A stretch of DNA of 32,000 bases, from positions 1 to 32,000 of the forward strand of contig CAYHAA010000009.1 in the NCBI GenBank assembly GCA_964354495.1, in the 5' to 3' direction. A program made the position numbers and the translations under genes. Below are positions 2,376 to 22,119 of the stretch, in pieces; the stretch's first letter is position 1, and each line of letters begins with the position of its first letter. The DNA is from an uncultured archaeon. GTDB taxonomy: Archaea; Asgardarchaeota; Thorarchaeia; Thorarchaeales; Thorarchaeaceae. Below the pieces are notes generated by a model. It was not told the DNA's origin. It saw nothing but the letters and a program-made list of their open reading frames with translations, and searched no databases.

Positions 2376-4187
2376 CTAGTCTGGTTCTTCCGTGTGAAGC
2401 CAAGTGTATAGTGTCCTAGCTGAAGACTGAGACATGCCTTCCACCTTGGCTAGCTCATCAGCAGTTGCGTTCCTCACACCGTCATAGCTTCCAAATGCAT
2501 CGATGAGTGCCTTGCGCCGTTTCGGTCCGATTCCAGGCGCTTCCTCAAGTATTGAGCCGGTAAAGCGCTTCTCGCGGAGCTTGTGATGATATCGCTGCGC
2601 GAATCGATGTGCTTCATCACGAATACTCTGAATGAGGTGCAGACCCTCAGAACCATAGTCAAGCACGACGCCCTCAAGGTTGCCTCTAGTGAAGATTCGC
2701 TCTTCCGTCTTGGCGACAGCAGCCACCTGCAAGTACTCAAGTCCAAGTTCCTTGAGTGCATCAAGCGCTACCTTCAGCTGCCCCTTCCCACCATCAATAA
2801 GAATAAGGTCAGGGAGAGAATGACCACGTTCAAGAACGCCCGTGTAGCGCCTGAAGACAACTTCTCGCATCATAGCATAGTCGTCAGGAGTGTCCTTGGT
2901 CCGCACTCGGAACATGCGGTACATCTCGTTGTCTGGTTCACCGTTTTGAAATACAACACATGAGCCTGTGGGATCCGTGCCCTGTATGTTGGCAATGTCA
3001 AAGCCTTCAATATGCATCGGCGCCTGATTGAGGCCAAGAGCCTCTTTGAGCTCCTTGACACCATCATGTACTATCTCATCTTCACTGGAGCCAAGTATGA
3101 GCATCTTTCTGAGTGCACGGTGGGCATTCTTGTTCGCCATCTCAACGAGCTCGAGGCTCTTTGCGTCAAAGGCCTCAGTGACTTTGACCTCATGACCGTT
3201 GCTTTCGCTGAGCCACTCACTGAACTGTCGCATATCAGGAATCTTGCAGGGCAAGACTATCTCGTTTGGCAATCTTGGAAGTCCAAAATAGAACTGCTCG
3301 ATATATGCAGTAAGTACATCCGAGTCCTTTACCTCTAGGTCAACTTCAAAGTAGAAGTTGTCTTGACCAACCAGTCGTCCATTCCGAATGATTAGCATCT
3401 CTATGAGGGCGGCTTGTTCAGTACGAGAGATGCCGAGGATATCCCGATTGATGCCCTCGAACTCAACGACTTTCTGTCGGCTCATGATGATTTCAATATC
3501 TGTCAGTCGATCACGCAGCTCAGCTGCAGCTTCAAATCGCATCTCTCTTGATGCCCCTTGCATCTGTTCTTCGATGGATCTTGTCAGCTCCTCTGACCTG
3601 CCATCGAGATACATGCACATCTGCTCAACAAGTGACATGTACTCCTCCATTGAGATGTGTCTTTCACAGGGAGCCGTGCATCGTTCAAGATGATAGTCCA
3701 TGCAGGCACGCTTGACTTTCCAAGGTTCTTTGCATGTGGCAACGGGAATGATTTTCCGTATGGTGTCCAAGAAACGGTCCAAGCGCTTTGTACTTCCATA
3801 GGGACCAAAATATGTCGCTCCATCCTTCTCAGCATCTCTAGTGACCTCAAACGTGGGAATAGGGTCATTCTTGTTCACGCGCACCCATGCGTGTCGCCGA
3901 TCGTCCTTCAGAGCTATATTGTACCGAGGTTGATGTTTCTTGATGAGAGTCTGCTCCAGAATCAGTGCCTCACGCTCTGTATTCGTGATGATGGTTTCCA
4001 GGTCAACTGCCTCCTGCATCATCTCCCATGTCCTACGGTAGAGACCTGTCTTTCGCATGTACGACCCGACGCGACGCTTCAGCATCTTTGCCTTGCCAAT
4101 GTACAGAATGTCGCCCTTGCTATTCTTCCAGATGTAGACTCCTGGCTGCTCGGGCAAGTCACTGACTAAGGCTGAAAGGTTCGACAT
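2376..4187 (-). CDS. uvrC: Excinuclease ABC subunit C
   Basis: N-terminal GIY-YIG (GVYIW...YIGKAK), Cys-rich region, UVR coiled coil (EMRFEAAAELRDRL), RNase H-like domain (IEGFDIAN, LIDGGKGQL, RDEAHRFA), C-terminal HhH2. Confidence 0.98.
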   Translation of the reverse strand: MSNLSALVSDLPEQPGVYIWKNSKGDILYIGKAKMLKRRVGSYMRKTGLYRRTWEMMQEAVDLETIITNTEREALILEQTLIKKHQPRYNIALKDDRRHAWVRVNKNDPIPTFEVTRDAEKDGATYFGPYGSTKRLDRFLDTIRKIIPVATCKEPWKVKRACMDYHLERCTAPCERHISMEEYMSLVEQMCMYLDGRSEELTRSIEEQMQGASREMRFEAAAELRDRLTDIEIIMSRQKVVEFEGINRDILGISRTEQAALIEMLIIRNGRLVGQDNFYFEVDLEVKDSDVLTAYIEQFYFGLPRLPNEIVLPCKIPDMRQFSEWLSESNGHEVKVTEAFDAKSLELVEMANKNAHRALRKMLILGSSEDEIVHDGVKELKEALGLNQAPMHIEGFDIANIQGTDPTGSCVVFQNGEPDNEMYRMFRVRTKDTPDDYAMMREVVFRRYTGVLERGHSLPDLILIDGGKGQLKVALDALKELGLEYLQVAAVAKTEERIFTRGNLEGVVLDYGSEGLHLIQSIRDEAHRFAQRYHHKLREKRFTGSILEEAPGIGPKRRKALIDAFGSYDGVRNATADELAKVEGMSQSSARTLYTWLHTEEPD

Positions 4188-4264: not shown

Positions 4265-4780
4265 TTACTTGGAGTGTCCATCAGGGCTTCTCTGAATGGC
4301 GATCTGTCTAATTCTCGTGCGCCAACGAATGATCGAGTCACAGGCACCATCCTTAGAACACCCGTAATATGTATAGTCGGAACAGTCTATGCAGGGGGAG
4401 ATGGCAACAGCGTTTTCGTTGGCAGCAGCCTCCATCCTACGAAGTACGTCAATCTCACCTCTGAGGGCGTCAATTGAGGAGGGGGCTCTCCTATCATACA
4501 GCTGATAGGCTTCATCAAGTCGCCCGAGATCCATGAGGATCCGTGCTAGCTCTTCCAGAAAATGTGCCGGGTCGGGGTTGAGGGAGATGGCCTTCCGCAG
4601 TGCCTCCTCTGCCTCGTCAAGTCTTCCGAAGGAATGGAGATACGAACCCAGAGTATACCATGTCTGTGCGTCTCGAGGAAATGTCCTGAGCCGCATTCTG
4701 AGGTCAGATTCTATCACAGTAGAAGGCCTGTCGCTTGAAATCGATTGATTAGTCTTCGTGGCATCCTCTCGCTGTGTCAT
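4265..4780 (-). CDS. TPR-repeat protein with C-terminal four-Cys motif
   Basis: TPR consensus (AQTWYTLGSYLHSFGRLDEAEEALRKAISLNP; LARILMDLGRLDEAYQLY) and C-x2-C-x7-C-x5-C. GGAGG precedes the ATG at 4780, preferred over 4807. Confidence 0.8.
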   Translation of the reverse strand: MTQREDATKTNQSISSDRPSTVIESDLRMRLRTFPRDAQTWYTLGSYLHSFGRLDEAEEALRKAISLNPDPAHFLEELARILMDLGRLDEAYQLYDRRAPSSIDALRGEIDVLRRMEAAANENAVAISPCIDCSDYTYYGCSKDGACDSIIRWRTRIRQIAIQRSPDGHSK

Positions 4781-5225
4781 GCGTTGTCCTCCCGGCGGAC
4801 GAATCATGAGGATTCTGTCGATGCAACCAGGGATGAATACCCTTGGAGTGCTAATATAGGGTATGTGTACGGGTGAGAGATTTAGACCTGACTGGCATTG
4901 TAACGGTTATGAATCCTTTTTTCTTACTTTTCAACGTTATACGTATCAGAAGACGCAAAATATGCATTCTAATCACCTCAATCTTGTAGTATAGACCTCA
5001 TAGCACGATTTCACATCCTTCCCTGTGAGAATAATGCGCAAGGCCAGACGACAAATCGAAAGCATAGGGCGCCCTTCTGTTTCTTCATTGCTTTTCGATT
5101 CGAAGTGCTTCTTCACGTTTGATTGCCAGTAGGCAGACTATGCTGGAACTACAAGTAAAACACCTGTGTGAATCGAATCCGGTGGAGAAATCGAAACAGA
5201 TGCAATGCACTACTCTAGAAGAGCT

Positions 5226-8060
5226 TCAAGATGTGGAGAGGACTGATTTCAGATGTTTTCCAGTATAGGATTTCTTCACTCTGGTCACTTCTTCTGGCGT
5301 CCCGACTGCGACGACTTCCCCACCACCGTCACCACCATCAGGGCCGAGATCTATCACCCAATCTGCGGTCTTTATCACTTCGAGATTGTGCTCAACAATG
5401 ACCACGGTGTTGCCTGCGTCGACGAGGCGATTCACTACTCCAAGAAGCACATGTACATCTGAGGCTGAGAGTCCAGTCGTCGGTTCGTCCATCAGGTAGA
5501 GTGTGTTCCCTGTAGACTTGCGGGATAGCTCAGCAGCCAGCTTCATGCGTTGAGCTTCGCCGCCACTCAATGTCGTTGCCGGCTGGCCCAGCTGAAGATA
5601 GCCAAGTCCGACATCGACCAAGGTTCCTAACCTCTCAGCAATCTTGGGAATGTCAGCAAACAACTGTAACGCTTCCTCAATGGTCAAAGAGAGGACCTGC
5701 GTGATGTTCTTTCCTTTGTAAGTGACCTCCAGGGTCTCCCTGTCGAATCGGTTACCCTTGCAGACATCGCAGGTCATGAAGACATCAGACATGAAGTGCA
5801 TCTCGACCTGAATGACGCCACTGCCTTTGCATTTCTCACACCGACCGTCTCTCGTGTTGAAACTGAAACGGCCAGGTCCGTACCCTCTCGCTTTCGCCTC
5901 AGGCATCATTGCAAAGAGGTCTCGAATCTCTCCGAAAGTCTGCGTATACGTTGCAGGATTACTTCTCGGAGTGCGACCGATCGGAGACTGGTCAACGAGA
6001 ATCATTCTATCAATATTCTCGACACCGTCAATAGAATCATAGCTCCCTGGGACAGTACTTGTTCCGTTGAGTTGCTGAGCCAGTGCCTTGTATAGAGTTT
6101 CATGGGTCAGAGAGCTCTTTCCGGCCCCAGAAACGCCAGTGACGCATATGACCGTGCCAAGGGGAAATGCAGCGTCGATGTTCTTGAGGTTGTTGGCCCG
6201 AGCTCCATGAATGACGATCTGCATACCGTTGCCGCACCTTCGCTCTTCAGGAATGGGTATCCTCTTGACTCCAGCTAGGTATTGAGCAGTGAGAGACTTC
6301 GGATCTGCAAGAACTTCAGAGGGTGGTCCCTCAGCCACAAGATAACCGCCATTGACACCGGCAAGAGGGCCGAGATCAATGAGATGATCAGCAGCTGTAA
6401 TTGTATCGCGGTCATGCTCTATCACCACAACAGTATTCCCGAGAGATCTCAAGTGATAGAATGTTTCGATGAGCTTTCCCACATCGCGAGGATGGAGCCC
6501 GATTGATGGCTCATCAAGGCAATACAATACTCCCGTGAGGGCAGACCCTATCTGTGTAGCAAGACGGATTCTCTGGCTCTCCCCTCCTGATAGGGTCATG
6601 GATGCCCTGTCAAGACTCAGATACTCGAGACCTACGGCCAGTAGAAAGTTAAGACGTGCTCGTATCTCCTTGAGTACCAGTTCTGCTATCTTGAACTCTC
6701 GTTCAGTAAGCGTGATGGTCTTGAAGAATTCAGCCGCCTTCTCAATGGTCATCGAGGTAATCTCATCAATGGGCTTTCCCGCAACAGTGACAGCCAGACT
6801 CTCAGGCTTCAGCTTTCTACCATTGCATGCGTCGCAGGCAGTCTTCCGGGAGAACTCATTGGCAATGCGTTGAGCCCACCAGCGGTAGTACAACTTATCG
6901 CTGGCCTTTCCTCGGTCAAAGATACGTTCGAGCCATCTGACTAGACCATACCACTTCCTTGTTATCTCCCACGTCGATGTTTCGCCTTCCTGAGTATAGT
7001 GAAGTGTATATTCAGGACGACCCCAGACCAGTGCTTCTATCTGGGATTGGCTAAGCTCATTGAATGGGGTCTCTAAAGTGAATCCGAGAAGTCTGCCCAG
7101 TTCAACAAGTCTGTCATTCCACCAGGTCCGTTCACCTGCATTGATATGCCGACTTATCTCATGAACCGTCATGCTCTTGTCAGGTACTAAGAGCTCAGGA
7201 TCAATTGACATTGTCACACCAAGACCGTTGCAGACAGGACATGCTCCATCAGGCCTATTGAAGGAGAATGCTTTTGGACCCAGTTTCTCGTACTGAATGC
7301 CACACTTCGGACACATTAGCTGTTGAGCAAAGGTGAGATCCTCTACGCCTTCTCGAGATACGATTGCCCTACCGTCGCCAGTTTCAAGAGCGGTCTCCAA
7401 GGACCCTATCAGCCGCTCACGGTGCTTCTGATTCAGTTCGAGCCTATCAATGACAACATCGATATCGTGCTTCTTCCGTGCATCCAAGTCTACTTGGTCT
7501 ATATCCATGACATCTCCATCCACACGGACACGAACGAATCCATTCTTGTGGAGCCCATCAAGAGCGTCCTGATGCTTACCTGTCTCGCCACGGACTATGG
7601 GGGCGAGGACGTGAATTCTCTGTCCGCCGTTCTCGTCAAGGAGTAGTCGTGCAGCAGACTCAGCGGTCAATTGCTCCATGGGAAGACCGCATTTGACACA
7701 GTGAGCAACTCCAATATTTGCATAGATTAATCGGAGGTAATCATGAATCTCTGTACTCGTGGAAACTGTCGATCGCGGGTTTTTTGTGCGGCCCTTCTGC
7801 TCAATGGAGATAGCAGGTGGGAGTCCCGTGATCTTCTCGACCTTCGGCCTATCGAGCCGTCCGAGAAATCTTCGAGCGTAAGAGCTAAGGCTCTCCACAT
7901 AGCGCCTCTGGCCTTCAGCGAAGATCGTGTCAAGTACAAGGGTTGACTTGCCTGAACCACTTGGCCCCGTGACCACAACAAGACAGTCTCGGGGGATGTC
8001 TACATCAATTGACTTGAGGTTGTGTTCCTCAGCCTTGCGTACCTTGATGTAGCCCGTCAC
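5226..8060 (-). CDS. uvrA: Excinuclease ABC subunit A, second paralog (944 aa)
   Basis: Two Walker A motifs (GPSGSGKST, GVSGAGKSS), LSGGE signatures, DEP Walker B motifs, Zn modules and a UvrB-binding domain. The GTG start overlaps the upstream uvrA stop by 4 nt. Confidence 0.95.
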   Translation of the reverse strand: MTGYIKVRKAEEHNLKSIDVDIPRDCLVVVTGPSGSGKSTLVLDTIFAEGQRRYVESLSSYARRFLGRLDRPKVEKITGLPPAISIEQKGRTKNPRSTVSTSTEIHDYLRLIYANIGVAHCVKCGLPMEQLTAESAARLLLDENGGQRIHVLAPIVRGETGKHQDALDGLHKNGFVRVRVDGDVMDIDQVDLDARKKHDIDVVIDRLELNQKHRERLIGSLETALETGDGRAIVSREGVEDLTFAQQLMCPKCGIQYEKLGPKAFSFNRPDGACPVCNGLGVTMSIDPELLVPDKSMTVHEISRHINAGERTWWNDRLVELGRLLGFTLETPFNELSQSQIEALVWGRPEYTLHYTQEGETSTWEITRKWYGLVRWLERIFDRGKASDKLYYRWWAQRIANEFSRKTACDACNGRKLKPESLAVTVAGKPIDEITSMTIEKAAEFFKTITLTEREFKIAELVLKEIRARLNFLLAVGLEYLSLDRASMTLSGGESQRIRLATQIGSALTGVLYCLDEPSIGLHPRDVGKLIETFYHLRSLGNTVVVIEHDRDTITAADHLIDLGPLAGVNGGYLVAEGPPSEVLADPKSLTAQYLAGVKRIPIPEERRCGNGMQIVIHGARANNLKNIDAAFPLGTVICVTGVSGAGKSSLTHETLYKALAQQLNGTSTVPGSYDSIDGVENIDRMILVDQSPIGRTPRSNPATYTQTFGEIRDLFAMMPEAKARGYGPGRFSFNTRDGRCEKCKGSGVIQVEMHFMSDVFMTCDVCKGNRFDRETLEVTYKGKNITQVLSLTIEEALQLFADIPKIAERLGTLVDVGLGYLQLGQPATTLSGGEAQRMKLAAELSRKSTGNTLYLMDEPTTGLSASDVHVLLGVVNRLVDAGNTVVIVEHNLEVIKTADWVIDLGPDGGDGGGEVVAVGTPEEVTRVKKSYTGKHLKSVLSTS

Positions 8061-11005
8061 TTCGCTGACCTCCGCTTCAGTGCCTTCTTGGGCACTGACT
8101 GTTTCATGGGAATAGCTCGCCCTTGTTTCATCGGTTTCAGTAGTCCACGAAGGTAGTGGCCAGTGAACGAACTCTCACATGCAGCTACATCTTCAGGAGT
8201 TCCTTCCGCAATGAGATATCCGCCTCCATCTCCGCCCTCAGGACCAAGGTCTATCACCCAGTCAGCGGTCTTGGCAACATCCAACTGGTGCTCAATCACG
8301 AGGACTGTGTTTCCTAGGTCAACGAGTCGATGGAGAACTTCGAGTAGTTTCTTGATGTCGGCAAAGTGCAATCCGGTCGTTGGCTCGTCTAGTAATATGA
8401 GAGTCTGCCCAGTGGCAGGTCGTGAGAGGTACTTGCTCAGCTTGATACGCTGCGCCTCGCCGCCCGAGAGCGTAGTCGCGGGCTGTCCGAGTTTCACATA
8501 GCCCATACCAACTTCACAGAGGGTTTCGAGCCGTCTGCGGACACTGGGAATGCCCTCGAAGAACTTGACTGCCTCATCGATACGCATGTCCAAAATGTCT
8601 GCGATGTTCTTGCCCTTGAACCGCACCTGCAGGGTCTCTCTATTGTACCGCCGTCCCTTGCACTCACTGCAAGTGACCTGAACCGGAGGGAGAAACTGCA
8701 TTTCAATGATCTCAACACCTGCACCCTTGCAGGTCCCGCATCGCCCACTCATGACATTGAAGCTGAAACGTCCGGGTTTGTATCCTCTTACCTGGGACTC
8801 GGGAAGGCTTGAGAAGAGGTCTCTCAAGGGTGACCAGAGACCTACGTATGTCGCAGGGTTCGACCTAGGTGTTCTCCCTATGGGACCTTGGTCAATGACT
8901 ATCACCTTGTCAAGCTGCTCCACGCCGAGTATCTCATCAAACTCACCTGGTTTTGCCTCTGCATTGTGGAACCTTCGTGCAAGTTCTCGTTGAAGAGTTT
9001 CTACAATCAGAGAGGATTTGCCAGATCCTGAAACTCCCGTGACTGCGATGAACAGACCGAGGGGAATCCGAAGATTCAGGTTCTTTAGATTATTATGCCG
9101 GCAACCCCTTATTTCGAGGAACCGACCGTTTGGGTGTCTTCTATTCTTCGGAACAGGTATACTATCCTCGCCCCGAAGGAACTTGCCAGTGATGGACCTT
9201 TCACATTTGAGAACATCGTCGAGAGTCCCGGCTACGACAACTTCTCCGCCTTCAGCACCGGCTCCGGGGCCCAGGTCGACGATGTAGTCAGCTCTCCGGA
9301 TGGTCTCTTCATCATGCTCCACAACAAGAACATTGTTCCCCAAGTCTCGCAGATGAGTCAGAGACTTCAGGAGCCTGTCGTTGTCTCGACTGTGAAGCCC
9401 GATACTGGGCTCGTCACACACATACGTCACACCAACAAGGTTTGAGCCAATCTGGCTCGCAAGGCGAATCCTCTGAGCCTCGCCTCCTGCAAGACTCGGA
9501 GCGGACCTATCGAGAGTGAGATAGTCTAGTCCTACATCCTCGAGGAATCCGATACGCCCCATTATCTCACGAATAATTGGGTCAGAAACCGGTCGAAGTC
9601 TAGGCACAACTTGTGCCTTCTCGAAGAACTCCCTCAGAGCCTTGATTGACATGTTGTTCAGGTCAGTGACAGACTTGCCATCGAATGTCACGGCCAGAGA
9701 CTCGGATCTCAGCCTCCTGCCGTTGCAGAGGGGGCAGGTCTGAGATGACATGAACTTCTCGAGAATACTCTGACCATACTCAGATGTTGTAGTCTTGTAG
9801 AGCCTCTTCGCCCGTTCTACCCACCCCTCAAAGGGCCTCTGGAACGTCCCCTTGAACTGGACCTCGTACTCTGGATTATCGGCTTCCCATGTGGCCTCGA
9901 ACTTCTCGTCACCTGAGCCATAGAGAAGTAGGTTTCGCTGCTTCTCCGTCATGTCCTTCCATGGTGTGTCCATGGTAAAGCCGTAGTGCTCAACAATCTT
10001 CTTGGTGAAGTCGCGTTTGACTTTCCACTCGTCTGTCGAGAACAGGCCATCATTCAGAGAGCGGCTTGGATCTGTGATGAACATATCAGGGTCGAACTGC
10101 CTGATGACACCAATGCCTGTACAGCGAGGACATGCGCCTTGAGGTGTGTTCCAACTGAAGATACGAGGTTCCATTTCTGGAAGACTGATACCACAGTCAA
10201 CACAGGCGAACTGCTCTGACAAGGTCAGATCTCCATCAGGACCAATGATAGTGACCACTCTCTCGGCCATCTTCAGTGCGGTCTCCACAGCCTCTGAGAT
10301 TCGCCCTCGCTCTGATGCCTTCACAGTGAGACGGTCGATGACCACTTCTATCGTATGCCCAAAGTACCTATCAAGCGACATACCTTCCTCAAGCTCAAGG
10401 AGTTTCCCGTCAACGCGCGCTCGTATGTACCCCCTCTTCATCAGGTCCTTGAACTCTCTCCGATACTCTCCCTTGCGTCCCCGGACAATAGGAGCCAGAA
10501 TCATGACACGGGAGCCCTCTTTGAAATCCATGATTCGGTCAACAATCTGCTGAGATGTCTGGGGTTCGATCTTCTTTCCGCATTTCGGGCAGTGGGGCTC
10601 TCCGACTCTAGCGTACAGAAGGCGCAGATAATCATAGATCTCTGTAATGGTCCCAACAGTTGACCTTGGATTACGGCTGACACTCTTCTGATCGATTGAT
10701 ATCGATGGTGAGAGACCTGTCATGAGGTCGACCTTTGGTTTCTCAAGCATTCCCAAGAACTGCCGAGCATACGGTGATAGTGACTCGATAAATCGCCTCT
10801 GGCCTTCACTGTAGATAGTATCAAAGACCAAGGAGCTCTTCCCTGACCCCGAGAGACCTGTCACTACTGTAAGAGTATTCTTTGGAATAGTGACATCGAT
10901 GTGTTTCAGATTGTGCTCAGCGGCGCCAATGACCACGATTGACCTAGGAATATCTTCCTCAGACTCTAGGTCACCAGTGCTCTTCTTCTTGTCCGCCGTG
11001 GTCAC
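8057..11005 (-). CDS. uvrA: Excinuclease ABC subunit A (982 aa)
   Basis: GAAEHNLK, GLSGSGKSS, EGQRRFIESLS, Zn modules, GRTPRSNPATY, LSGGEAQRIKL. The GTG start overlaps the uvrB stop by 4 nt. Confidence 0.98.
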   Translation of the reverse strand: MTTADKKKSTGDLESEEDIPRSIVVIGAAEHNLKHIDVTIPKNTLTVVTGLSGSGKSSLVFDTIYSEGQRRFIESLSPYARQFLGMLEKPKVDLMTGLSPSISIDQKSVSRNPRSTVGTITEIYDYLRLLYARVGEPHCPKCGKKIEPQTSQQIVDRIMDFKEGSRVMILAPIVRGRKGEYRREFKDLMKRGYIRARVDGKLLELEEGMSLDRYFGHTIEVVIDRLTVKASERGRISEAVETALKMAERVVTIIGPDGDLTLSEQFACVDCGISLPEMEPRIFSWNTPQGACPRCTGIGVIRQFDPDMFITDPSRSLNDGLFSTDEWKVKRDFTKKIVEHYGFTMDTPWKDMTEKQRNLLLYGSGDEKFEATWEADNPEYEVQFKGTFQRPFEGWVERAKRLYKTTTSEYGQSILEKFMSSQTCPLCNGRRLRSESLAVTFDGKSVTDLNNMSIKALREFFEKAQVVPRLRPVSDPIIREIMGRIGFLEDVGLDYLTLDRSAPSLAGGEAQRIRLASQIGSNLVGVTYVCDEPSIGLHSRDNDRLLKSLTHLRDLGNNVLVVEHDEETIRRADYIVDLGPGAGAEGGEVVVAGTLDDVLKCERSITGKFLRGEDSIPVPKNRRHPNGRFLEIRGCRHNNLKNLNLRIPLGLFIAVTGVSGSGKSSLIVETLQRELARRFHNAEAKPGEFDEILGVEQLDKVIVIDQGPIGRTPRSNPATYVGLWSPLRDLFSSLPESQVRGYKPGRFSFNVMSGRCGTCKGAGVEIIEMQFLPPVQVTCSECKGRRYNRETLQVRFKGKNIADILDMRIDEAVKFFEGIPSVRRRLETLCEVGMGYVKLGQPATTLSGGEAQRIKLSKYLSRPATGQTLILLDEPTTGLHFADIKKLLEVLHRLVDLGNTVLVIEHQLDVAKTADWVIDLGPEGGDGGGYLIAEGTPEDVAACESSFTGHYLRGLLKPMKQGRAIPMKQSVPKKALKRRSAK

Positions 11006-12993
11006 TCTTGAACTCCCTCTACTCTCTTCCGTAATCCTGCAATCTGATCTCGGAGCTTTGCAGCCCTCTCGAACTCAAGGTTCCGGGCAGCCTCCTTCAT
11101 TTGTTCTTCCAAGTCGATGATGTAGTCAGCAAGTTCATCCACCTCAAATGGGTCAAAGTCCTCTAGCTTTGTCTGAGCTTCTTTCTCAGGCTTGACAATA
11201 CCCTGTGCAATGTCCTGAATGCCCTTCACAATTGACGTCGGTCGAATGCCATGTTCCTCGTTGTATTTCGTCTGATAGCGACGTCTTCGGTTGGTCTCAT
11301 CGATGGCAGACTGCATCGCATCTGAAACGTGGTCACCATATAGAATCACACGCCCATTGGCATTTCTTGCTGCTCGGCCCATCGTCTGAATGAGTGCCCA
11401 GTCCGTTCGTAGGAAGCCTTCCTTATCAGCATCCAGAATTGCCACCAAAGAAACCTCTGGGAGGTCAAGCCCCTCTCGAAGGAGGTTAATTCCGACCAAG
11501 ACGTCAAACTTTCCCTGACGAAGTTCGCGAACAATCTCAATTCGCTCGACGGTCCCTATATCGGAGTGGAGATATCGCGCCTTGACACCTGCTTCTACAA
11601 GATACTCACTCAGCATCTCAGCAGTCTTCTTTGTGAGTGTCGTGACTAGGATTCGGTCACCCAGAGTAACTGTCCTCTTGATCTCTCCAAGGAGATGGTC
11701 CACCTGACCTACTACAGGCTTGACGATGACCTCAGGGTCTAGGAGCCCGGTTGGTCGAACCAGCTGCTCAACTATCTGCTGACTCACCTTCTTTTCAAAC
11801 GGGCCAGGTGTCGCGGTCGTGTAGATGACGCTCCTCATGTACTTCTCAAACTCGTGGAACTTCAGGGGTCTGTTGTCAATCGCGGAAGGCAACCTGAAGC
11901 CATAATCAACAAGGTTCTGCTTCCGAGCAAGGTCGCCATTGTACATCCCATGTAACTGGGGGATGGTCATATGACTCTCATCAAGAATCATCAGGAAGTC
12001 ATCAGGGAAGTAATCCAGCAGGGTAAAGGGTTTTACACCCTTTGCACGGCCATCAATGAATCGTGAGTAGTTCTCAATCCCCTGACACATGCCAGTCTCT
12101 CTCAGCATCTCAAGATCGAATAGGGTTCTGCGCTTCAGGCGGTCCGCCTCGACTAATTTGCCCTCTTTCTTGAACCACTCAACCCGCTCTTCCATCTCCT
12201 GCTCGATCTCATCGAGGACCTCAACGACTTTCTCATATCGTGCGATATGATGACGGGCAGGGTAGAGTTCAAACCAGTCAGGATTTCCAATTTTCCTGGC
12301 AGTGAGGCGTTCAAGAAGAGTGAGCCTGTCAACAACATCACCGTCAAGCTCTATCCGGATGCTATTCTCGGACCCTGAGGGGTACACATCGATGACATCG
12401 CCTCTGACCCTGAAGACTCCCGGTTTGACATCCATGTCGTTGCGTTCGTACTGCATGGCTACAAGGCGTTCCAGAATCTCTCTCCTGTCGACCTTTTTTC
12501 CTCGTTCGACGTACATTCGGAAGTAATCGTACTCGCTTGGGTCCCCCACACCATAGATACAGGACACGGAGGCCACCACAACGACATCCTTTCGAGAACG
12601 GAGTGAGTGGGTCGTTGAGTGGCGGAGTCGTTCGATCTCTTCATTGATGTCAGTCTCTTTCTCAATGTACATGTCCTTTGAGGGAACATACGCCTCGGGC
12701 TGGTAGTAGTCATAGTAGCTGACGAAGTACTCCACCGCATTTGACGGAAAGAACTGCTTGTATTCAGAGGCGAGCTGTGCTCCTAGAGTCTTGTTGTGGG
12801 ATATGACCAGAGTAGGTTTCTTCACTGCCTCTATGACATTGGCAATTGTGAACGTCTTGCCTGAGCCTGTGACTCCCAGAAGGGTCTGATGCTCAAGACC
12901 GCTCTCCAGACCCTCCACCAGCTTGGCAATTGCCTGTGGCTGGTCACCAGTTGGTTTGAAGGGTGCCCTGAGCTCAAAGTTCTGGTCTGCCAT
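11002..12993 (-). CDS. uvrB: Excinuclease ABC subunit B
   Basis: PTGDQP, GVTGSGKT, beta-hairpin YYDYYQPEAY, DESH, LREGLDLPEV, QTMGRAARN, C-terminal UVR domain. Start probably the ATG at 12993 (alternatives 13005, 13023). Confidence 0.98.
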   Translation of the reverse strand: MADQNFELRAPFKPTGDQPQAIAKLVEGLESGLEHQTLLGVTGSGKTFTIANVIEAVKKPTLVISHNKTLGAQLASEYKQFFPSNAVEYFVSYYDYYQPEAYVPSKDMYIEKETDINEEIERLRHSTTHSLRSRKDVVVVASVSCIYGVGDPSEYDYFRMYVERGKKVDRREILERLVAMQYERNDMDVKPGVFRVRGDVIDVYPSGSENSIRIELDGDVVDRLTLLERLTARKIGNPDWFELYPARHHIARYEKVVEVLDEIEQEMEERVEWFKKEGKLVEADRLKRRTLFDLEMLRETGMCQGIENYSRFIDGRAKGVKPFTLLDYFPDDFLMILDESHMTIPQLHGMYNGDLARKQNLVDYGFRLPSAIDNRPLKFHEFEKYMRSVIYTTATPGPFEKKVSQQIVEQLVRPTGLLDPEVIVKPVVGQVDHLLGEIKRTVTLGDRILVTTLTKKTAEMLSEYLVEAGVKARYLHSDIGTVERIEIVRELRQGKFDVLVGINLLREGLDLPEVSLVAILDADKEGFLRTDWALIQTMGRAARNANGRVILYGDHVSDAMQSAIDETNRRRRYQTKYNEEHGIRPTSIVKGIQDIAQGIVKPEKEAQTKLEDFDPFEVDELADYIIDLEEQMKEAARNLEFERAAKLRDQIAGLRKRVEGVQE

Positions 12994-13272
12994 CCTAACG
13001 GTCATCTCCTTTGCTAGGCTCACGCATAAACATTACAACTTAGGGTTAGTGGTACATGCTATGCCAGCGAATGACTGAAACTAGTACTAGTAGCTTCTTG
13101 AGCGATGTAATCCGCAAGCACGGACAACCCTGTCGGGGAGAGGTAGGTGAATATATCATTACATCTCAATGGAACCGAGCTATCTTTCCTCCTGTGTTTT
13201 TCTACGTCAAAGGCAATCTTATTGTGCAGAATTAGGGCCTCCCGGTTGAGGTGGTCTACCATATTTAGAGAG

Positions 13273-21264: not shown

Positions 21265-22119
21265 TTGAGAACCACTGGCATCTATCTGGACAAGAACAGG
21301 CTACAACCAGGAGAAACACTCTCAGGTCAAGTCACCATACGAACTAGCAAGTCATACGAATGCAACCGGGTTGTTCTGAAGACAATAGGGAAAGAGAGAA
21401 CGGAACGTGCTGCTGGAGAAACTAATGTAGTTGAGGAAAAGCACCATATCAATACCGTGTTCACAATCAGCGAGGGAGGTATCATCCCAGAAGGTGTATC
21501 TCGATTCCCATTTTCCTTCAGACTGCCGAGCAGTCTACCGCCAAGCTATCATGGGAGAAACGGGACAATTGAGTATTCAGTCCGGAGTGTGGTTGAGGTC
21601 AATTGGGCTCTGGACCCTGTGTCGGAAGAATCATTCTATGTCCTACAGGAGGGACCTCCTAGTCTTCACGATATCTTTGATGTTCGTCGCCTGAATCAGA
21701 CATCAGGACATCTGCATGTCAAGCTCGATTCGAATGCTATATGGATGAACAGAGGAATACGTGTAAGGTTCATGGTGAGTGAGAGGAGTCGAGTGAAAGG
21801 AGTCAGGTTTGAAATGCTCAAGAGAGAAGAAGCACTCTGTCAGCATCATGTAGTGAATAACCATGAAACGGTGGCCTTTGAGTTCTATCCTATTTCTCCT
21901 GCTGATTTCGAGAGTTGGAAGGATGTACAGGTCGGAAAAACGTTGGATTGCCAATTACCATTCCGCGGAGAGCTTATTTCCGTTTCTTACATTCTGAAGG
22001 TCAGCCTAGATGTATCACTCGGACGAGATCCTGATGTGATGATTCCGCTCGAGTTCTCAAAAGATGTCCCTGTTGGGAATGTATTGGATGAAATTGAGCG
22101 CGACCTCTGGCGAATCTAA
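21265..22119 (+). CDS. Arrestin-fold (arrestin-N/SpoOM/Vps26-like) protein
   Basis: PGETLSGQVTI and FPFSFRLPSSLPPSYHGRNGTIEYSVR match the arrestin-N pattern. A second beta-sandwich follows (ISVSYILKVSL). TTG start. Confidence 0.8.
   Translation: MRTTGIYLDKNRLQPGETLSGQVTIRTSKSYECNRVVLKTIGKERTERAAGETNVVEEKHHINTVFTISEGGIIPEGVSRFPFSFRLPSSLPPSYHGRNGTIEYSVRSVVEVNWALDPVSEESFYVLQEGPPSLHDIFDVRRLNQTSGHLHVKLDSNAIWMNRGIRVRFMVSERSRVKGVRFEMLKREEALCQHHVVNNHETVAFEFYPISPADFESWKDVQVGKTLDCQLPFRGELISVSYILKVSLDVSLGRDPDVMIPLEFSKDVPVGNVLDEIERDLWRI

Follow-up and report, generated by a model that had tools for sequence, protein, structure and literature searches.

We analysed a pair of adjacent uvrA genes in a 32,000-nucleotide stretch of DNA from an uncultured Asgard archaeon of the family Thorarchaeaceae (the window; positions 1 to 32,000 of contig CAYHAA010000009.1, assembly GCA_964354495.1). 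Three long open reading frames (ORFs) on the minus strand of the window correspond to uvrB, uvrA and a second, diverged uvrA that we call uvrA', and these lie with a gene for a tetratricopeptide repeat (TPR) protein and uvrC in a single co-oriented cluster (Table 1). A preliminary description of the window, made from the letters alone, had placed a uvrB-uvrA-uvrA' operon here, and the minus-strand ORFs bear this out. Its span of 5226-13005 is right for the places of the ORFs but not for the start of uvrB, which opens at a GTG further upstream, 13005 being an internal ATG. The family match starts at residue 15, and the true start of uvrB is possibly an internal ATG, either this one or that at 12993. 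Whole-genome searches found one uvrB, one uvrC and only these two UvrAs in the genome (3.3 Mb, 97.7% complete).

The three genes follow one another without a gap. Both four-nucleotide GTGA overlaps claimed earlier, in which the stop codon of one gene shares letters with the start codon of the next, can be read directly in the sequence. A purine-rich GAGGGAG lies upstream of the uvrA start at 11013-11019, and in relatives uvrB and uvrA overlap by 1 or 4 nucleotides (nt). At the second junction a Shine-Dalgarno-like box is contained within the end of uvrA itself, and the GTG of uvrA' is the sole in-frame start codon near the first aligned residue of the family (residue 4-5), so that the coupling does not depend on the choice of start codon. 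An ATGA or GTGA overlap occurs at the uvrA/uvrA' junction in 14 of 15 loci of the genus, and the 15 relatives' loci examined have a GGAGG/GGGAGG-like box 7-9 nt upstream, within the end of uvrA. In the sister family the same Shine-Dalgarno box precedes an ATG located 2 nt past the stop. On these signals uvrA and uvrA' are clearly predicted to be translationally coupled.

Table 1. Positions of the uvr genes, their junctions and selected domains in the window
Feature	Position	Strand	Remarks
uvrB	11002..13023	-	673 amino acids (aa); opens at GTG 13023; NF003673 1008.7 bits (cut-off 743)
GTGA overlap, uvrB stop TGA / uvrA start GTG	11002..11005	-	sequence read directly
uvrA, first or 'N-type' unit	8057..11005	-	982 aa; NF001503 1378.6 bits
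UvrA insertion (DNA-binding) domain	9710..10090	-	~aa 306-432; 44% identity to canonical consensus; 4 Trp
GGAGGT Shine-Dalgarno-like box, inside uvrA 3' end	8068..8073	-	7 nt upstream of uvrA' start
GTGA overlap, uvrA stop TGA / uvrA' start GTG	8057..8060	-	TGA at 8057-8059
uvrA', second or 'C-type' unit	5226..8060	-	944 aa; NF001503 1316.7 bits
UvrA' UvrB-binding domain	7290..7706	-	~aa 119-257; partly eroded; R216/E222 equivalents present
UvrA' Trp-rich insertion domain	6810..7199	-	aa 288-417; 24% identity to canonical consensus; 8 Trp
TPR protein with Cys-rich tail, between uvrA' and uvrC	4265..4807	-	180 aa; Pfam TPR matches
uvrC	2376..4187	-	Pfam GIY-YIG, UvrC RNase H domains, HhH; TIGR00194 537 bits

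Two complete and diverged UvrA proteins

The two proteins are full-length paralogs, as the preliminary description had said. They are 48% identical over 939 aligned residues, end to end, both exceed the equivalog cut-off of 1147 bits of NCBIfam NF001503 / TIGR00630, and each matches solved UvrA structures with a phmmer E value of 0. We compared them in an alignment of 87 canonical UvrAs, 10 UvrA orthologs, 9 UvrA' orthologs and 7 fused double-length UvrA proteins cut into halves. The Walker A, Walker B, signature and H-loop motifs of both ABC modules are intact in both paralogs and their orthologs, and all four ATPase sites of a UvrA/UvrA' pair look competent by these motifs. Each ortholog group also conserves, at 100%, the 12 cysteines of the three zinc modules (six CxxC pairs) and the equivalents of E. 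coli R216 and E222 in the UvrB-binding domain, residues that have been studied in the R216A E222A double mutant (PMC3025350). The earlier claim that both copies carry a UvrB-binding domain thus holds down to these residues, with the qualification that the domain of UvrA' is partly eroded.

Class II UvrA proteins are without the UvrB-binding domain and the first zinc module (PMC9328131). Both UvrA and UvrA' have these parts, and a class II identity, which the preliminary description had also dismissed, was rejected for each.

The two copies have nevertheless moved away from canonical UvrA to different degrees and in different places. Canonical UvrA has 341 alignment columns with conservation of 90% or more; UvrA differs at 21 of these and UvrA' at 27, and the departures are lineage-fixed. 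Of the two copies, UvrA is the more canonical. The most diverged region is the insertion domain, in which UvrA and UvrA' share only 23% identity, and the Trp-richness noted earlier for the second copy is a property of its whole group: UvrA' orthologs have 7-8 Trp in this domain, compared with a mean of 2.3 and a maximum of 5 in the 87 canonical UvrAs. Identity of the UvrB-binding domain to the canonical consensus is 55% in UvrA and 44% in UvrA', and a Q..Q..D helix and an RKGE motif in this domain are present in the former and absent from the latter.

Further differences fall at the centre of the dimer. In the cryo-EM structure of Ct-UvrA the dimer interface is made by R54, Y55, S58, F66, G80-I85 and L507-V510, and Y62, Q65 and F66 enter the DNA helix (PMC12796330). 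At these sites, in Ct-UvrA numbering, UvrA carries Y55F and A84S and UvrA' carries Q65R, S82P and M508T, the rest being conserved in each. Other lineage-fixed departures of UvrA' from residues conserved at 90% or more include R115N, the loss of RKGE and a change of GLH to GLS after Walker B-II, where 97% of canonical UvrAs have GLH. Signature I of UvrA is an LAGGE variant.

The eroded UvrB-binding domain, the GLS and the most unusual insertion domain of the pair would all be in keeping with a UvrA' that is only a passenger in the operon, a UvrB-independent DNA-scanning accessory ATPase resembling class II UvrA2, DrrC or Ecm16 (clearing DNA-bound toxins, for example), leaving UvrA as the sensor of nucleotide excision repair (NER). 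We consider this improbable, since UvrA' retains a whole UvrB-binding domain, zinc module 1 and the R216/E222 equivalents, all absent from class II, scores above the UvrA equivalog cut-off, and is conserved both in its position between uvrA and uvrC and in its coupled start.

Relatives and ancestry of the pair

Adjacent, separately framed uvrA genes recur in the family to which the window belongs. In a survey of 151 genomes of the phylum, where 91 matches are unlisted, such pairs occur in at least 22 of the 32 sampled genomes of the family, covering 14 genera; the tandem is not peculiar to this assembly, which is the reverse of an outcome that the preliminary description had seen as fatal to its proposal. 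Contig-end truncations aside, no sampled family member has just one of uvrA and uvrA' among the matches listed. Two other families have one frame of 1917-1972 aa with two UvrA units (the Heimdall type), and the remaining families of the phylum have a single uvrA. The order uvrB-uvrA-uvrA'-TPR gene-uvrC, with between zero and two genes inserted after uvrA', is shared by 14 further species of the genus, and one sister-family genome also has uvrB-uvrA-uvrA'.

The ratio of nonsynonymous to synonymous substitution rates (dN/dS), taken from four species pairs with unsaturated dS, is 0.030-0.049 for uvrA, 0.029-0.048 for uvrA' and 0.023-0.071 for uvrB. Both uvrA copies are under strong purifying selection and neither is relaxed, which settles a second doubt raised at the outset. 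Next to no weight can be given to redundancy or decay of one copy, or to an artefact of assembly or binning: 48% identity between the copies excludes an assembly repeat, both have a dN/dS of 0.03-0.05, the relatives' loci examined have open frames, and long contigs from many samples carry the pair again. No support was found for an assembly duplicate or a decaying copy, and both were rejected.

A profile search covered 1.84 billion representatives, and the best 150 matches were considered. These are mostly double-length UvrAs, 91 of them being at least 1700 aa, and the double-length proteins come from Heimdallarchaeota, Chloroflexota, Chlamydiales, Poribacteria, Planctomycetota (Isosphaeraceae) and Armatimonadota. 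Of 80 sampled bacterial uvrA loci, none had another uvrA within 6 kb. Trees were built from the halves of the fused proteins together with 80 named bacterial UvrAs and single-copy Asgard UvrAs. In IQ-TREE under LG+C20, UvrA groups with the N-halves (98 by the SH-like approximate likelihood ratio test, SH-aLRT) and UvrA' falls on the C-halves' side of a branch (92 SH-aLRT); under LG+G4 with 34 rows, support is 92 for the N-type and 89 for the C-type grouping. A bootstrapped careful search recovered a canonical clade of bacterial and single-copy Asgard UvrAs (97/93), to which neither paralog and none of the fused halves belongs. UvrA and the N-halves have RKGE and Q..Q..D, both of which UvrA' and the C-halves have lost, and a derived 'RY' is common to UvrA and the N-halves.

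A local duplication, which had been put forward as one possible origin to be checked by phylogeny, was rejected: a tree constrained to unite the two Thorarchaeal clades fits significantly worse (approximately unbiased (AU) test p=0.009, log-likelihood (lnL) difference 27.2; LG+G4, 34 rows). It is well supported that the pair is old and did not arise by local duplication, and equally well supported that it belongs with the units of double UvrAs and not with canonical UvrA. That the pair is the split counterpart of the fused double UvrA, with the same order of units, is our best estimate, to which we would give about two thirds of our confidence.

Several relatives show further variation in their uvr genes. 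One family member has a uvrA match with a single in-frame TGA (G153:C4:346681-349437). In another relative (L039; G003:C37, 11912-13674) uvrB is in two overlapping ORFs of 321 and 266 aa, perhaps through a frameshift or an error of assembly. A third full-length UvrA is encoded at a separate locus in some species of the genus (L054-L059, in G003:C45, G013:C5, G018:C54, G023:C152, G001:C15 and G017:C148). This protein scores ~1110 bits, is 41-43% identical to the UvrA of the window, forms a long branch within the canonical clade, and is without the R216 equivalent, the DNA-probing Y62/Q65/F66 and part of zinc module 1. Relatives also have ~1630-aa fusions of two truncated UvrA-like units (family positions ~247-923 and ~404-921), each followed by a coupled ORF of ~345 aa (L060 in G001:C5, L061 in G013:C5, and similar loci in G003, G004, G005 and G018). 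Neither the third UvrA nor the ~1630-aa fusion was found in the genome of the window.

A putative heterodimeric damage sensor

We think it probable, from these comparisons of sequence, that uvrA and uvrA' encode the two different subunits of a single damage sensor, a heterodimer of UvrA and UvrA' provided for by coupled and approximately equal synthesis. The heterodimer is favoured because the interface is conserved, synthesis is coupled 1:1, both copies are retained throughout the sampled family, and the pair of units is recurrent as a single chain. Such a sensor would be the unfused form of the ~1900-aa single-chain double UvrA of Heimdallarchaeota, Chloroflexota, Planctomycetota and others, and with the single UvrB and UvrC of the cluster it would carry out bacterial-type NER. 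UvrA and UvrA' would dimerise through their ATP-binding-I domains, as in the canonical UvrA2 dimer. This domain, which contains the interface, is made up of two stretches of the chain, residues 1-88 and 504-590. The conservative UvrA, with its canonical UvrB-binding domain, would be the main loader of UvrB, and UvrA' would give a different contact with DNA or lesion through its Trp-rich insertion domain, eroded UvrB-binding domain and Q65R.

UvrA and UvrA' differ in fixed ways at the insertion domain, the DNA-probing centre and the UvrB-binding domain, which suggests that the genes themselves encode an asymmetry. On damaged DNA the UvrA homodimer loses its symmetry, with one 'recognition-ID' and one 'support-ID', and takes up one UvrB first, giving a UvrA2UvrB1 intermediate (PMC11985968). 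This published asymmetry makes a heterodimer role plausible, and the asymmetry encoded by the two genes would stand in place of that which the UvrA2 homodimer gains on damaged DNA alone. Taken together we infer that the fused relatives, the conserved coupling and the complementary changes strengthen the idea of a heterodimer. A more detailed division of labour, in which UvrA loads UvrB and UvrA', having an Arg for the DNA-inserting Gln as well as its Trp-rich insertion domain, holds or probes the lesion side in a UvrA-UvrA'-UvrB complex of fixed polarity, is offered tentatively, as possible rather than probable.

The alternative with most to recommend it is that UvrA and UvrA' form two independent homodimeric sensors, UvrA2 and UvrA'2, which differ in their preference for lesions or DNA structures and share UvrB, co-expression just ensuring that both are present. 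Both proteins are complete class I UvrAs in which ATPase sites, zinc modules and UvrB-contact residues are intact, the self-contacting interface positions Ct Y55 and F66 are aromatic in both, and the insertion domains, which have been implicated in damage recognition (PMC3025350, PMC11985968), are strongly different. Strict 1:1 coupling across 14 genera would however be unneeded by two homodimers, recurrence as single-chain fusions in several lineages would not be expected of them, and UvrA', without the canonical motifs of the UvrB-binding domain, is a poorer fit to a stand-alone UvrB loader. The fact that, among the matches listed and apart from truncation at contig ends, neither copy is found alone in a sampled family member also counts against them. 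Two homodimers keep about a quarter of the probability because each protein could homodimerise and the fused chains could pair N:N.

A number of observations weigh against a heterodimer, or against the kinship with fused proteins that forms part of the case for it. With a dimer interface as conserved as this, each protein could pair with itself as well, and the fused chains could pair N:N and C:C between molecules, so that the fusions do not prove an N:C contact. In the motif alignment neither copy has a degenerate ATPase site, unlike many obligate ABC heterodimers. In the bootstrapped search the N-type and C-type groupings received 66/95 and 52/90, of which the ultrafast bootstrap values of 66 and 52 are weak, and FastTree put UvrA' with the canonical UvrAs. 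We prefer the IQ-TREE result as FastTree joined long branches and differed on the position of UvrA'. A pooled count of sites that bear on orthology to the fused halves is uninformative, at 3 concordant and 4 discordant, and the Chloroflexota-type fusions, at 2:3, do not favour concordance. Counted by lineage, the other ratios of concordant to discordant sites are 11:4 for Heimdall, 19:9 for P0137 and 5:0 for P0157/P0183.

Set beside the canonical class I homodimer (E. coli; G. stearothermophilus 2R6F/3UWX; T. maritima 3PIH; M. tuberculosis 3ZQJ; Ct-UvrA 9GXK), both UvrA and UvrA' have two ABC modules, three zinc modules and UvrB-binding and insertion domains, exceed the curated cut-off and lie in an operon with uvrB and uvrC. 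They differ in being two diverged and coupled subunits, each with its own fixed changes at the dimer centre and in the UvrB-binding and insertion domains, and in branching outside the canonical single-copy clade. With the class II proteins (D. radiodurans UvrA2 2VF7, DrrC and Ecm16 7SH1) UvrA' has in common that it is a second UvrA-family protein beside a class I UvrA in the same genome; it differs by the UvrB-binding domain and zinc module 1 that these are missing. Replacement of a symmetric homodimer by paralogous subunits with divided roles is familiar from MutS, which gave rise to MSH2-MSH6, and from heterodimeric ABC exporters. The likeness to these lies in the paralogous subunit pair and is an analogy from general knowledge; many heterodimeric ABC ATPases have a degenerate ATPase site and UvrA/UvrA' has none.

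The nearest counterpart is the fused double UvrA, which likewise consists of two diverged full-length units in a fixed N-then-C order and at a 1:1 ratio; both forms are functionally uncharacterised. In the pair, UvrA and UvrA' are two separate polypeptides, with a genuine TGA stop and a re-initiation signal between their genes, and lie beside uvrB and uvrC, whereas the Heimdall gene is apart from them. At one locus of the Heimdall type (L053; G028:C24, 6499-12249), which encodes a fused double UvrA of 1916 aa, neither uvrB nor uvrC is present in the 6 kb to each side. The model for double-length UvrA, NF001885 (PRK00635; cut-off 3054 bits), is not reached by UvrA or UvrA' (675.9 and 662.9 bits), nor by the fused relatives from Heimdall (1365 bits), Chloroflexota (1269 bits) and Chlamydiales (1683 bits).

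The preliminary description had proposed the pair as its best candidate for an 'undescribed system', and this does not stand as worded. [quoted passage not shown] The fused double UvrA is already known and present in databases, yet unstudied, and the split form is probably a variant of it. No account of a split pair of class I UvrAs turned up in the literature on UvrA classes, NER in Asgard archaea and uvrA in tandem or duplicate, from which a 2013 paper on UvrA classes was not covered.

Neighbouring genes and wider meaning

The gene between uvrA' and uvrC accompanies uvrC in relatives. A homolog of this TPR-Cys protein (45-94% identity) lies directly upstream of uvrC in 11 of the 11 relatives' loci that reach that far, and it stays beside uvrC even where one or two genes have been inserted after uvrA'. 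In four relatives (L040, L041, L042 and L048) the insertion between uvrA' and the TPR gene consists of 1-2 opposite-strand ORFs of 616-639 aa. Insertions at this place imply that the uvrB-uvrA-uvrA' and TPR-uvrC blocks are separable units. The TPR-Cys protein may be an accessory factor of the uvr cluster. Elsewhere in the window, at 21265-22119 on the plus strand, a 284-aa ORF has arrestin N/C and Vps26-like Pfam matches, a eukaryote-like signature that fits an Asgard host.

UvrA is a textbook example of a homodimer, and the choice of the damaged strand and the single-UvrB end state are still debated (PMC11985968, PMC12796330). A natural two-gene pair would allow each protomer to be separately mutated, labelled or swapped, which is impossible in a homodimer, and its chains are each half as long as the fused double UvrAs. 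If a UvrA-UvrA'-UvrB complex of fixed polarity is true, strand choice and the transition from UvrA2B2 to UvrB1 would become testable by mutation of one subunit. The fused double UvrAs and the split form are at present all named 'UvrA' in databases. In Thorarchaeota the split pair is the only UvrA, and the family therefore merits a name of its own and a biochemical test.

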